DNA of 60,893 nt, counting the filler, from Sphacelaria rigidula (lineage: Eukaryota), in NCBI GenBank assembly GCA_964200075.2. It is 8 parts of 8 records of this genome, joined end to end, with 100 filler letters (N's around TTAATTAATTAA, not from the genome) between each part and the next. Parts side by side here need not be neighbours in the genome. Positions count along the whole stretch, not along the records: positions 1 to 7,525 come from CAXNAA020014511.1; 7 more parts are not named here. One strand, written 5' to 3'. Made by a program: the position numbers and the translations under genes. A model generated the notes under the pieces. The model did not search any database. It was not told where the DNA came from and worked only from the letters and a program-made list of their open reading frames with translations. This document shows, in pieces, positions 247 through 6,200 of the stretch (its first letter is position 1; every line of letters begins with the position of its first letter).

Positions 247-3200
247 CTGGCTTTGAGCGATATGAAACAAAAACAAAACGTAAGCTAGTGTCTCGCGACA
301 ACCGTCAATGAAATGATGTCATGTGCGACAACAAAGTTGCGCTACATGAACTCGTGAAGGTTAACTTTGGAAGTAGGATTGTTTTGCTTGAAAACTCACG
401 TTCGAAGTGGAAGATGCAAGTTAGGCTTTCATCTTTCAATAAACCATGCGAATTCCAAGTCGAATTTTGAAGTGAAGTCTCGGCTTCTATATCGAACTTT
501 AACTCACAGCTTCGGCTTTCACTTTCAACTTGAACGCGGCCGTTCAGATCGAAGTTTCAAGCTAAATCTTGGAACAATGGTGAAGCTTGAAGGTAATCCT
601 TTCATTCAAATTGAGGCTTGAACCTGAAGTACCCATACTCAACACGGAACGTTCAAGGTCGCGAGATTCGACTTGAACCTCACATTTGAACTCGATGAAG
701 ATTTAAGACGAACTCATCTTGAAGATCTCGACTTGAAAATACTATTCTTCTCTTCAAATAAACGATCACCTCTCAATTTGGGCGTTCGAGATAAATTTGT
801 AACAGCGGCTACCCAACGCCATTGTCCGAATGCTCATTCACCCCAACAGAAGCTATTTTAACGCACATGAGCCGCTGCAGGTAGGTACACTTCATTTCGA
901 CCTCATTTTCAAAGGGTACAGCGTTTGTAAGATGTTCGGAAAAACAACGGATGCACGTCTCAGCAGCGGCGTATTTCAAACGCTTCGTGGTCGGATGTAT
1001 ACTAAAATGCGATACGCATCGCACCTGTCCATCCGCGAGGTGCTTTTGCATACACTCTTCCGTGAACTTCAGACCGATGTTCCAGAGGTCAACATCCATG
1101 GACCGAACCGACACCTCCATCAGAGACGACTCCCAGCCGCCCCCGCCCAGTATCAGCTGCTGTATCTGCAAGCTCATACATAACAAAAGACAGTACGAAT
1201 GCAGGGAAATCTCGTGATCAGTCACGCCTCGCACGAAGCGCGAGTATCATAAAAACAAAGAGCGTATCATAAGGAAAAACAAATGCTGACGCGACGACCG
1301 TCCAAAACGATGTGCCAATGACGATCGCCCAGTTCAAGGGATGAAACTATTCCTCGTGCCTGCTCGTTGGTGAGCCTTCCCTGACACATGTTTACAACGG
1401 CTTCGAATGCATCCTTCCTCCTCAATTGCCCCAAAGTCAACACGGTGCAACCTAGTGTTCTCGACATCAGCATATTGCTGACCTGGGGGGTACGAAAACG
1501 TATAAAACAAACAAGAAACGTCGAGCACAAACACAGGCGAAGGTATCCCCATGAATCTGTCACTAACGCGCATGAACATGTGTCACAAGTAGAGCGCCCA
1601 CAGTACAAATTCTAACATTATGTGCCCACTCTCGTTAGTCAATACTCGCATACAGTACTTGGAACTACGGAACTCAAAGAAAAAAATAGGTCACACGTCA
1701 GCCCGATCCGGTGCCTCCTTTGATGGAGTCCAGACGGTTGGCCACAAGAACCGCTCACTAGGACCGCGAGCGCGTATAGCAGAATAAATAAAAAAGAGGA
1801 GGAAGAACCCGCCGTGAACCGGTGAGACAGTTCTACCAATTATACCATCGGAGGGTGAGACAACAGCCGAGTACTCTTAGCTTACTTTTTGTCAAGGCAT
1901 TTCCACATGCGCACAGGCACAACACCTCATCTAGTTCGCGGTACTACACCAATAACATTCCTATCCCATGGACCTAGCTGGGTACGCCATCGAGCTTCTC
2001 CGTAACATGTAAGGTGGGGAACGAGACTGGTGAAACTCCAAACCTTCACCTTTGCAGGTGTGAGCTTGTCCACGAGAGCAGCCACCACCGCCTCGAAGGT
2101 TTCTACGCTACAGCTATTCGCCGCCATCGACAACACTGTGGCCTTGAATGTGTTCTCCCACATCATAGTCTGTTCCAACTGCGAGGAAGACAGCGCAGAG
2201 TAAGCAGGGAAACATCACACCCGAGGAAACTTCGTCACGGTTCGACATGTTCGCACATTTCAAGTAAACAAGTGCACAGAGAGAGGACGAAAAACCACAC
2301 CCTCACACTGGCCAGGCCAGACTCTTCGACCTCCACCGCCGAATCATCACGAGTTTGCTTGGAATACTGCCGTCATCACAAGCACAACACTCGGGACTGT
2401 GCCATCCGAAGGGCACAACATGTACAGTAGTGGTCTGCAGGGGCTTATTGCGGGCGGCGCGCGCACTTGGGGAATCGATTCCTCCAGCGAAACGTCCTCG
2501 AGCACTCTAACAAAATGAACAAAAGACGAAAAACAAAAATCCGCCATGTCACCGGTAAGACAGTACTTTCAGGTCAACAAGCGCCTACACTACTGTGGTG
2601 CAAAACGGCAGCCGAGTGGCATCAGCTCACGTTTCCTGGAGACATTTCTCTATATGCGCACAGGCGCGTCTTCGTTATGCTACATGAGCATACAAGAGCC
2701 CAACGAGTTTGGTTTATCATCTCAGGGTAGAATAAACAAGTGAAGACAGAGCTCGAAAAGTCGTCAACCATCACCACCGCAGGTGTGAGCTTGTCCTCGA
2801 GAGCAGCTACTCTGTAGGGTATACAGGAAAAGACGAGGCACGTCAAGTCCTCAATCATCACCTCTGCAGGTGTGAGCTTGTCCTCGAGAGCAGCCACCGC
2901 CGCCTCGAAAGTCTCTTTGCTACCACCTCGGGCCGCCGCCAACAACACTGAATTATAACCGCCTGTCCACATCATCGCCTCTTTCATCTGCAAGGAAGCC
3001 ACGGCAGAGCAAGGGGGACACCATCGCGCACGAGGACTCTCATCGCGGTCGGACATGGCCACAGATTTCAAGACACGAGCGCACTGAGATTGGACGAACA
3101 ACAAAACCTCATATCGGCCAGGCGAGCAGCTTCGACATCTATCGACGAGTCATAACGGTTCGACTTGACATACTGCCGCCATCACAAGCGAAGCACTCCT

Positions 3201-6200
3201 GACTGCACGCCGAACGCCACAGCTTGCACCGCAGTGCTGTACGGGGGGGTTCTTCGCGGGCGGCGCCCGCTCTCGGGGGATGGACTGCTTGGGCGATGCG
3301 TCCTCGAGCCCGCCTACACTATGAAAAACATGGGATAACGGAAACGCACCGTGACACCGGTGACACAGCACTTGCAGGTCAAGCTAGCGACTACACTACC
3401 GTGGTGCAAGACAGCAGCCGAGTGGCATCAGCTCATGTTTCCTAGAGGCATTCCTCCATGCGCACAGGCGCGTCTTCGTCTCGATCCATGGGCATACAAC
3501 AGCCCAACGAGTTCGCGATACCATCTCAATCATTCGCCTATCCCATGCATCTGACGGGGTGCGCCATCGAGCTACTCTGTAGGGTATACAGGAAAAGACG
3601 AGGCACGTCAAGTCCTCAATCATCACCTCTGCAGGTGTGAGCTTGTCCTCGAGAGCAGCCACCGCCGCCTCGAAAGTCTCTTTGCTACCACCTCGGGCCG
3701 CCGCCGACAACACTGTATCGACACCGCATTTCCGCATCATCGCCTCTTTCATCTGCAAGGAAGCCACGGCAGACCAAGGGGGACACCATCGCGCACGAGG
3801 ACTCTCATCGCGGTCGGACATGGCCACAGATTTCAAGACACGAGCGCACTGAGATTGGACGAACAACAAAACCTCATATCGGCCAGGCGAGCAGCTTCGA
3901 CATCTATCGACGAGTCATAACGGTTCGACTTGACATACTGCCGCCATCACAAGCGAAGCACTCCTGACTGCATGCCGAACGCCACAGCTTGCACCGCAGT
4001 GCTGTACGGGGGGGTTCTTCGCGGGCGGCGCCCGCTCCCGGGGGATGGACTGCTTGAGCGATGCGTCCTCGAGCCCGCCTACACTATGAAAAACATGGGA
4101 TAACGGAAACGCACCGTGACACCGGTGACACAGCACTTGCAGGTCAAGCTAGCGACTACACTACCGTGGTGCAAGACAGCAGCCGAGTGGCATCAGCTCA
4201 TGTTTCCCAGAGGCATTCCTCCATGCGCACAGGCGCGTCTTCGTCTCGATCCATGGGCATACAACAGCCCAACGAGTTCGCGGTACCATCTCAATCATTT
4301 GCCTATCCCATGCATCTCACGGGGTGCGCCATCGAGCTACTCTGTAGGGTATACAGGAAAAGACGAGGCACGTCAAGTCCTCAATCGTCACCTCTGCAGG
4401 TGTGAGCTTGTCCTCGAGAGCAGCCACCGCCGCCTCGAAGGTCTCTTTGCTACCACCTCGGGCCGCCGCCGACAACACTGTATCATCACCGTCTGTCCAC
4501 ATCATCGCCTCTTTCATCTGCAAGGAAGCCACGGCAGAGCACGGGGGACACCATCGCGCACGAGGACTCTCATCGCGGTCGGACATGGCCACAGATTTCA
4601 AGACACGAGCGCGCGGAGGTTGGACGAACAACAAAACTCTCCCATACCGGCCAGGCGAGAATCGACTGTTCACATCGACGAGTCATAACGGTTCGACTTG
4701 AACTACTGCCGTCATCACAAGCGAACTACTCGTGACGGTGCATGCTGAACGCCACAGCTTGCACCACAGTTGTCTGCGGGGGGAGTTTCGCGGGCGGTTC
4801 CCATGCTTGGGGAATACGTACTCGAACGATACGTCCTCGAACCCGCCTACAATATGAAAAACATAGGGAAACGGAAGTCCACCGTGACACCGATGACACA
4901 GCACTTGCAGGTCAACTAGCGACTACACTACTGTGGTGCAAGACAGCGGCCGAGTGGCATCAGCTCACGTTGCTTAGGGGCACTCCTCCATGTGCACAGG
5001 CGCGTCTTCGTTCTGGTCCATGAGCATACAACAGTCGAACAATTTTGCGGTATCCTCTCCATCACATTCCTATTTCACTGACCTCACGGGGTGCGCCATC
5101 GAGCTACTCTGTAGAATATACGGGAAAGACGAGGCTCGTAAAGCCCTCAAACAATCACCTCTGCAGGTGTGAGCTTGTCCTCGAAAGCAGCCATCACCGC
5201 CTCGAAGGTGTCTTTGCTACCGCTCTTCGCCGCCATCGACAACAGTGTGTCGTGCTCGAAGCCCTTCCACATGATCGCATCTTTCACCTGCGAGGGAGCC
5301 AGCGCATACATAGCAGGGCCTGAAACATCTCGTGTGAGGAACTTTTGTCACGATCCGACATTGTCACATATTTTAAGCAGAGCAATGAATGTACACACGA
5401 CGAAACCCCTCCCGAGTCGGGCAAGAGTCTAGGACATGAATCGACAAATTATGCTTTTTTTCACTTGAAATACTGCCCCATTAGAAGCAAAACCGTGCGT
5501 GATTACGCACTCTAAGGGGCACAACGTTTGCCGTAAAGTTCTGCGGGGGGATTAGTGCGGGTGGTGCGCGAACTTGGGGTGTCGATTCCTCAATGTGTTG
5601 TGTACGTTCTCGAAAATAACGGTACCGGTGTGCACTGCATCCATTAGCAGCGCCATACCATCGACGCTCTTTGTCAGCATCAAGTTCACTTGGAAACAAC
5701 CATTCGAAACAGGGGAGGTTTGTGTCCCATTGGGTGCCCCAACGAAGGCGAGTCAGCGCTGATTATGGCGGCAAGTCGTTTTCATTCACGCGTCTGGTCT
5801 ACGACGATGTGCACTGTACGCGGTCCACTGCACTATTACGCAATTTGAATTTGTTTCACACCAAACCTGTCGTACGTAAATGTCGCGTGGTGTACAATAC
5901 TCAATACAGCGTGAACGTGACATACACGGCATACAATATTTAGTTTTTGGACTGACCGTGCATCCTTCGCGCTGGCCAGGCAATACGATGCGTCGCGACC
6001 TTCCTCGTCCTCAGACATGATCATACCCCTGACTTGGACAATCGCGTAATGCTAAAACAGTAAATACATATAAAGCGTATGGCTTTGCCACATGCAGTCC
6101 CGTACTGTTGGCAGCCCGACAACAAACAAACCTCCAGATAGAGGAAACCTCCAAATGGTCGGTTGTGAATCGGTTACGACGAGTGCAAATGGCTACCGGA

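Follow-up and report, generated by a model that had tools for sequence, protein, structure and literature searches.

A tandem array of near-identical repeat exons lies in the first chunk (positions 1-7525, record CAXNAA020014511.1) of a 60,893-nucleotide (nt) composite of genomic DNA from the brown alga Sphacelaria rigidula (assembly GCA_964200075.2). The whole composite, referred to below as the window, consists of eight chunks of about 7.5 kb, separated by linkers of the form N44-TTAATTAATTAA-N44 at 7526-7625 and then every 7624 nt; adjacent chunks need not adjoin in the genome. The gene carrying the array is located on the minus strand. Its repeat exons are 126 or 129 nt long, stand in phase 0 and encode one repeat of 42 or 43 amino acids (aa) each. 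This period of 42 or 43 residues is found in all seven clear repeat exons, as opposed to the period of about 33 residues of ankyrin. Three of these exons, designated d, e and f (4392-4517, 3627-3752 and 2862-2987), form the assembled array and are open 126-nt segments bounded by AG and GT. In a 30-column mismatch profile, the near-identical tract ran from about 2809 to about 4600-4625. This corresponds to roughly 2.4 units with three copies of the exon at a spacing of 765 and 765 nt.

The array units differ from each other mainly in one short patch of the exon. In an ungapped comparison, units 2862-3626 and 3627-4391 differed at 18 of 765 positions. Nine of these are intronic (3009, 3208, 3273, 3292, 3443, 3518, 3535, 3553 and 3622, in 639 nt), and the other nine (2941, 2951, 2954-2957, 2963, 2965 and 2969) are confined to 29 nt of the exon, none of its remaining 96 positions being different. 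The minus-strand translations of exons f and e begin with MKEAMMWTGGYNSVLL and MKEAMMRKCGVDTVLS, respectively; between them the patch changes from WTGGYNSVLL to RKCGVDTVLS through seven replacements (W>R, T>K, G>C, Y>V, N>D, S>T and L>S). Among 200,000 random placements of 18 differences over 765 positions, none put nine or more into any 29-nt window, and the Fisher exact test of 9/30 in the patch against 9/735 in the remainder of the unit gave p = 2.3e-9. A sequence-only reading of the same DNA had claimed that all nine exon differences between e and f lie in one 29-nt window and change seven residues, that the rest of the exon is identical and that the introns differ at about nine sites; recounting reproduced each of these figures exactly. 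The residues which it had read at the patch position of other repeat exons were found there as well, namely WTDGDDTV in 4392-4517, WKGFEHDTL in 5159-5287 and WENTFKATV in 2050-2178. The full patch of exon d, WTDGDDTVLS, is five positions off f and six off e, with one synonymous site elsewhere in the exon. Over 42 aa, protein identity amounts to 90% for d/e, 88% for d/f and 83% for e/f, all three exons being 100% identical outside the patch. The hypervariable patch is confirmed as real and far beyond chance.

Splicing and depth were assessed with Logan contigs from four runs (X1, X3, X4 and X5) placed on positions 1-7525. X1 and X3 are DNA-like. X4 and X5 behave as RNA and were taken as such solely on their spliced joints and their excess of exon over intron depth (exon bins 10-70 times the intron bins). 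Rare variants drop out of such contigs. Contigs that fit two places are assigned once; for this reason, the missing cover in X3 (3766-4267 and 4770-5020) and in several intron bins of X4 and X5 was taken as meaningless. A 72-nt X3 contig (3689-3760) carries the patch of exon e with no other letters at a depth of 167, and for at least this one variant the patch is not a consensus error. Among the contigs listed, none was seen to span the patches of exons f and d, so consensus error, which could have undone the observation, is excluded for e and not for d and f. The X3 flanking contigs differ from the window in 24 of 2515 and 42 of 2216 letters, and yet the exon e patch is identical. Its preservation in a run that is about 1-2% diverged elsewhere speaks for germline, stable variants.

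Four joints in X4 and X5 have CT..AC ends, that is GT..AG on the minus strand: 246/1025, 1165/2050, 5284/6573 and 6702/6919 (the slash separates the two joined positions). Splicing within the array appears as a backward joint from 4519 to 2779 with CT between, which represents the junction of two array exons. Its depth of 1700 in X4 and 1371 in X5 is about 12 times that of the contig joining exons a, b and c (140 and 115). About 12 array-array junctions per transcript fit about a dozen array exons in series. The backward joint and the loose ends of contigs demonstrate exon-to-exon splicing of the array without telling the copies apart. The exon and intron calls and the strand given by the sequence-only reading were right, with four other introns and the array exon junction seen spliced. 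Coordinates of all features are given in Table 1.

Table 1. Features of the array gene in the first chunk, listed in the direction of the minus strand (aa, amino acids; slashes mark joined positions)
Feature	Position	Strand	Evidence or remark
Older repeat exon a, 43 aa	6921..7049	-	RNA contig extends 248 nt upstream onto sequence outside the chunk (X4)
Older repeat exon b, 43 aa	6576..6704	-	Joints 5284/6573 and 6702/6919
Older repeat exon c, 43 aa	5159..5287	-	Joint 5284/6573 (cut +3), CT..AC, in X4 and X5
Assembled tandem array	2809..4620	-	Roughly 2.4 of the 765-nt exon-plus-intron units
Array exon d, 42 aa, first array unit	4392..4517	-	Bounded by AG and GT
Patch of exon d, WTDGDDTVLS	4471..4499	-	Comparison with e and f
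Intron d-e, 639 nt	3753..4391	-	9 sites off 2988-3626
Array exon e, 42 aa	3627..3752	-	Bounded by AG and GT; loose end behind 3754 in X4 and X5
Patch of exon e, RKCGVDTVLS	3706..3734	-	Unit comparison; letter for letter in X3 contig 3689-3760
Intron e-f, 639 nt	2988..3626	-	686-nt X3 contig 2966-3651, 3 other letters, word depth 654
Array exon f, 42 aa, phase 0	2862..2987	-	Bounded by AG and GT; X4 loose end CTGCAGGTGT behind 2989 = splice to upstream repeat exon
Patch of exon f, WTGGYNSVLL	2941..2969	-	Unit comparison
Repeat-exon remnant	2771..2810	-	Last ~35 nt and donor kept, patch and acceptor gone; RNA depth at intron level
Older repeat exon g, 43 aa, downstream of array	2050..2178	-	Joint 1165/2050, CT..AC
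Degenerate repeat exon, mostly skipped	1360..1482	-	Minor joint 1480/2048, depth 2.4 (X4), vs main joint 1165/2050, depth 169/118
Non-repeat exon, 47 aa	1025..1165	-	Joints 246/1025 and 1165/2050
Linker exon, cut by chunk start, ends ...NPFIPGMN	1..246	-	95% identical to P0128 start

The remnant at 2771-2810 is fused to array-type intron sequence at about 2808-2813 and marks the truncated downstream end of the array. At the other end, exon d was considered as an exon converted into the array; this was rejected, the identity profile showing that d is the first array unit, with the edge at about 4600-4625. Two joints were likewise discarded. Joint 2178/5159 in X4, a candidate for skipping of the whole array, extends over just 20 letters on one of its sides; exon c and the array exons have their first 26 nt in common, which makes so short a match undiagnostic. 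Joint 2180/2777 in X5 is not a separate event: it is the same junction placed on the exon remnant. Rfam gave no matches on 1-7525 and four plus-strand open reading frames (ORFs) gave no Pfam families; nothing here points to a plus-strand gene or a structured RNA as the cause of the intron identity. With the patch left aside, 15 nonsynonymous (Nd) and one synonymous (Sd) differences (pN 0.20, pS 0.05) separate the older exons c and g, and their introns are 30-54% diverged. This pattern may reflect exon-limited homogenisation or selection extending beyond the loop.

The word depth of the long flanking contigs, which measure 2-2.5 kb, is 46.5-48 in X1 and 38.5-45.3 in X3. Within the unit it reaches 462 (3078-3272) and 671 (3293-3583) in X1, and 654 (2966-3651, 686 nt with 3 other letters) and 718 (3623-3715) in X3, that is roughly 10-16 times the single-copy level; according to the caveat of the contig tool, a summed contig depth is not a copy number. 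The intron upstream of exon d (contig 4608-5114) is single-copy, with a depth of 37. Contigs break inside the patch, at 2966 and at 3715, as would be expected where the flanks are common to many copies and the patch is not. The depth of the contigs points to about 14-15 unit copies in these genomes against the 2.4 assembled, and the array has probably collapsed in the assembly. The locus is therefore flagged here as one that short-read or collapsed assemblies misrepresent.

Two other observations concern the surrounding sequence. At 7280-7525, all four runs have summed contig depths above 1e5-1e6, with thousands of contigs 95-99% alike and many loose ends within 7341-7478; a dispersed repeat of very high copy number probably lies beside the gene here. 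Poly-G runs of 37-70 nt occur in other chunks (18085-18184, 19092-19201, 22884-22945, 28117-28205 and 45561-45597), three of them directly after 10-N gaps, and look like sequencing or scaffolding artefacts.

Five 42/43-aa exons of the array and its neighbourhood gave no Pfam family, and in the ORF around exon a Ank_2 stayed below its threshold of 27.3 bits, at 13.4 bits (E = 0.12). A protein word-index search gave no match for exon d among longer proteins, nor for its 121-aa ORF among those of comparable length. Searched by sequence in PDB, a profile of eight repeat exons found chance-level matches only (best E = 0.11; EZH2, TCP-1), and the relative P0001 gave none. Among 1.84 billion proteins, the profile of eight repeat exons found 124 at E <= 1e-3, the named ones being from the brown algae Cladosiphon, Scytosiphon and Ectocarpus. 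Several relatives pass the Ank_2 cut-off of 27.3 bits (P0001 with 56.9, P0002 with 33.2 and P0003 with 40.5), and P0038 passes that of Ank_3 (26.9 bits against 22.3).

P0003, P0011 and P0022 combine Ank_2 with Ion_trans, and the source label of P0003 is 'Ankyrin Repeat Transient Receptor Potential Channel'. The ...NPFIPGMN motif of the last exon in the window (1-246) is situated between the ankyrin and the channel parts in P0022 (45% identity over 51 aa) and in P0003. Furthermore, P0128, a protein from another record, begins with this last exon (95% identity over all 82 aa) and continues with the domains Ion_trans (48 bits, cut-off 25), YVC1_C (38.5, cut-off 27) and PKD_channel (25.8, cut-off 22.4). 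Considering the shared linker exon and the relatives, the gene is most likely, judged by homology, a brown-algal ankyrin-repeat transient receptor potential (TRP)/PKD-type channel whose channel part would lie beyond the chunk. NACHT and NB-ARC had no Pfam match in the window ORFs tested, in P0128 or in P0001-P0003, P0011 and P0022; the N-terminus of the gene is outside the chunk.

The position of the patch was read from an AlphaFold model of P0001, built on a 15-row alignment (predicted local distance difference test, pLDDT, 76.7; predicted template modelling score, pTM, 0.76; repeat cores above 90). Each repeat is predicted to contain three helices. Helix A occupies columns 15-21 (TVLSAAA, corresponding to the TPLHLAA helix of ankyrin) and is followed by a turn in columns 22-24 and by helix B in columns 25-38; an extra helix C begins at column 41 and ends at column 6 of the following repeat, and columns 7-14 make up a loop, which has beta-bridges in several of the repeats. 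In the Pfam register, Ank positions 2-17 fall on P0001 residues 276-291. The matches to the model listed by Foldseek are all ankyrin-repeat proteins (designed ankyrin repeat proteins (DARPins), ankyrin-B/R, FEM1, NOMPC and TRPA1; best E = 3e-9), with TM-scores (TMq) to solved ankyrin (ANK) arrays of only 0.17-0.37. The repeat is thus modelled as locally ankyrin-like with a different solenoid geometry.

The columns that vary among d, e and f are 7, 8, 9, 11, 12, 14 and 17, six of which are placed by the model in the loop and one on helix A. The sequence-only reading had assigned the patch to the hairpin/loop before ankyrin helix 1. The modelled location bears this out with the addition of one helix-1 residue, the ankyrin identity itself coming via relatives only. 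Variability in the family is concentrated in the same region. Over 50 unique near-full-length repeats from 48 proteins, the ten columns with the highest entropy are 11, 10, 21, 18, 7, 37, 8, 41, 17 and 12; six of them (7, 8, 10, 11, 12 and 17) are in the patch, and two more are on helix A. By the Pfam register in P0001, columns 8, 10, 11, 13 and 21 correspond to the randomised DARPin positions 33, 2, 3, 5 and 13. Four of these columns (8, 10, 11 and 21) are among the ten most variable of 43, column 13 ranking lower. In P0038, a partial protein of Ectocarpus sp. 12, two adjacent repeats agree at 29 of 31 residues outside the loop and at 4 of 9 inside it; this is the one such pair among 108 within-protein repeat pairs from 34 family proteins.

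Counted by the Nei-Gojobori method for exons e and f, the patch shows Nd 8.0 and Sd 1.0 (pN 0.36, pS 0.13, pN/pS 2.7), the rest of the exon having no changes. The d/e and d/f patches show Nd 5 and 5, with one synonymous change in the other 96 nt. Divergence of the introns is 9/639, or 0.014, and the patch pN is about 25 times higher, which excludes neutral drift at a uniform mutation rate. The strong diversifying selection proposed by the sequence-only reading is supported by this difference in rate (pN 0.36 against 0.014) and not by the substitution ratio, N:S of 8:1 with pN/pS 2.7 being non-significant. Loops tolerate change, and the entropy across the family is highest there, as would be expected if the loop were unconstrained and drifting neutrally with the rest of the exon under purifying selection. 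However, drift cannot exceed the intron rate, and the e/f comparison (9/30 in the patch, 9/639 in the intron, 0/96 in the rest of the exon) contradicts such an origin unless the local mutation rate is raised; it is regarded as extremely improbable. Two origins fit the three assembled units: selection may have fixed new mutations in the loop, or short conversion tracts may have brought in diverged patches that were then retained.

Import of the latter kind would mean that micro-gene conversion copies patches of 20-30 nt from diverged paralogous repeat exons, located either in this array or elsewhere in the expanded channel family, into homogenised units, so that diversity is shuffled and not selected anew on the spot. 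The unit is multi-copy and the family is large, TRP channels being massively expanded in some brown-algal lineages according to the available text of a genome survey (10.1101/2024.02.19.579948). The exon d patch is intermediate, having its 5' codons in common with f and its 3' codons in common with e, and the exon e patch stands at about 3.8 times the single-copy depth. Nevertheless, the search for a donor came up empty: all three 7-residue patch cores are absent from 133 proteins, where the longest shared word is 5 residues, though this sample is tiny and the evidence weak. The rest of the window holds no second copy (305 of the 306 tblastn hits fall in the first chunk), and the d/e/f pattern is compatible with a simple, recombination-free tree. 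Any donor would have to carry differences of 8 N to 1 S as well, and selection would still be required for their origin. Conversion is considered possible but unlikely.

Still less probable is an assembly artefact, in which polishing with multi-mapped reads of a collapsed array erased the flank differences and read-length phasing kept those of the patch. The depth indicating about 14-15 copies against 2.4 assembled and the existence of unassembled variants, such as that at 2910-2913, would agree with it. Against it, the k-mer contigs of two other runs yield one unbranched intron path of 686 nt (2966-3651, depth 654) that breaks only in the patch, suggesting that most copies truly share their flanks and differ in the patch (rare variants being dropped), and the exon e patch was confirmed with no other letters. 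It is very improbable that the loop codons undergo programmed local hypermutation or somatic diversification in a process akin to adaptive immunity. The local rate is indeed extreme (30% against 1.4%), and the available text of one study (PMC3341825) contains speculation on a somatic process for brown-algal LRR/TPR exon arrays. However, the exon e patch is identical in an independent run that is 1-2% diverged and stands at about four copies, as inherited variants would. The four transitions and five transversions (counted by eye) affect all four bases without an adenine-only or single-base signature, and the 7.5-kb chunk contains no reverse transcriptase, template repeat or cassette bank. Low-level somatic variants would be invisible, since contigs drop rare variants. 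A diversity-generating retroelement was rejected, given the changes at all four bases and the lack of a reverse transcriptase match or a second patch copy in the chunk.

With moderate confidence, the locus is best explained as a homogenised or recently amplified tandem array in an ankyrin-TRP/PKD-type channel gene, with diversifying selection acting on a putative recognition loop. The 765-nt unit of exon and intron would have been amplified in tandem, and the copies would be kept near-identical by unequal crossing-over or gene conversion, or else be very young. Selection would favour different residues in the ten codons of the loop leading from the extra third helix to helix 1 and in one residue of helix 1. 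Each repeat might then offer a different contact surface along the array, on the usual recognition face of ankyrin, as the scaffold and the introns stay homogenised; the patch variants would be germline-encoded and the array exons spliced in series.

Several points weigh against this explanation. The channel domain itself is outside the window, the chunk ending at ...NPFIPGMN, and the structural model is that of the relative P0001 instead of the window protein. The copy number is based on contig word depth, and the extra copies could sit in paralogous loci. Three array exons are assembled from a probably collapsed array, and the order of the units and some of the intron identity may be assembler consensus. 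An unassembled copy differs at 2910/2911/2913, converting K-E-T-F to K-D-M-F in helix B (X1 depth 90.8, about 2 copies); the same copy is present in the RNA-like X4 (47.9 of 1124), and variation is therefore not strictly limited to the patch. The exon e patch depth of 167, about 3.8 times single copy, implies that some copies share a patch. On the d/e/f tree, the patch N:S is about 9:1 compared with about 3:1 expected (p ~0.26, binomial estimate), and dN/dS > 1 is therefore not shown by the N:S ratio alone.

A bolder and rather doubtful extension would see the array as a germline-diversified recognition module, in which about 14 near-identical repeats, each with a different selected loop, form a variable-ligand sensor wired to a cation channel, the phase-0 exons perhaps being included in varying sets. 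If true, this would amount to immune-receptor-like logic without an NLR or ROCO domain, and several receptor forms from one gene would be possible. Fast-evolving recognition proteins, among them fungal NLRs, brown-algal ROCO/NB-ARC proteins, PRDM9 and TAL effectors, are characteristically built of near-identical repeats whose contact residues are hypervariable. The occurrence of this signature in a TRP-type channel's ankyrin array suggests that changes in what a putatively cytosolic array binds may tune part of the expanded TRP channels of brown algae, and it provides a concrete functional hypothesis for this brown-algal gene family.

Among the known systems, the ANK, TPR and WD repeats of fungal NLRs of the het-e/het-d type are described in the available text of Dyrka et al. 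(2014, PMC4986451) as near-identical with few hypervariable positions and with variation in repeat number; concerted evolution with positive selection is proposed there, the difficulty of assembly is remarked upon, and the selected sites of the fungal ANK repeats are located on the inner helices and the hairpin/loop. The present array is similar in its near-identical repeats and few hypervariable positions. Unlike the fungal genes, it has a channel partner without NACHT/NB-ARC match, one exon per repeat, homogenised introns and a three-helix repeat of 42/43 instead of 33 aa. The fungal definition of internally conserved repeats demands more than 85% identity over at least 100 aa, compared with 3 x 42 aa here, where the d/e (90%) and d/f (88%) identities are above that limit and the e/f identity of 83% is below it.

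According to Zambounis et al. (2012, PMC3341825) and Teng et al. (2024, PMC11378527), the ROCO-LRR and NB-ARC-TPR candidate receptor genes of Ectocarpus encode each repeat in an exon of its own. Their exons are duplicated in a highly dynamic manner, inactivated repeats remain within introns, and the sites under selection are on the presumed binding face. The gene considered here shares with them the brown-algal host and both structural features, namely one symmetric-phase exon per repeat (126/129 nt, phase 0) and an intronic repeat remnant (2771-2810). It differs in being ankyrin-like instead of LRR or TPR, in phase 0 instead of 2 and in the channel in place of a GTPase (Roc-COR) or NB-ARC. 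Ankyrin-TRP genes are not mentioned in the available text of either paper, the word 'ankyrin' appearing once in each, in a general list. The accessible part of the brown-algal genome survey (10.1101/2024.02.19.579948), which attributes to TRP channels a massive expansion in some lineages and a possible role in sensing the environment, is silent on TRP ankyrin arrays. No description of this array was found in the literature searched, supplements being outside the search; some of them, e.g., the ion-channel table of that survey, may list the gene.

The likeness to DARPins and consensus ANK repeats, solved structures of which headed the Foldseek matches, consists in a fixed scaffold whose variable residues occupy helix 1 and the turn that precedes it. 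The differences are the extra 9-residue helix, which replaces most of the hairpin, the TM-scores of 0.17-0.37 and the position of the array exons below the Pfam thresholds. Animal TRPN (NOMPC) and TRPA1 channels (5vkq and 7ykr among the Foldseek matches) would share with this gene an N-terminal ankyrin array followed by a six-helix cation channel; for the channel, the putative homology is judged from the Pfam matches of P0128 to Ion_trans, PKD_channel and YVC1_C. With about 19 or more repeats, the array here would be within the TRPN/TRPA1 range. The TRPN/TRPA1 arrays are old, their repeats have diverged and they are not known to contain a hypervariable patch. PRDM9 zinc-finger arrays and TAL-effector repeats likewise consist of minisatellite-like near-identical units that differ mainly in the codons of contact residues; these are DNA-binding, encoded in a single exon and of other folds. 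The principle of hypervariable repeats is hence already known, and what sets this array apart from the fungal and Ectocarpus cases is the 42/43-aa three-helix ankyrin variant, the homogenisation of whole exon and intron units and the ion-channel partner.

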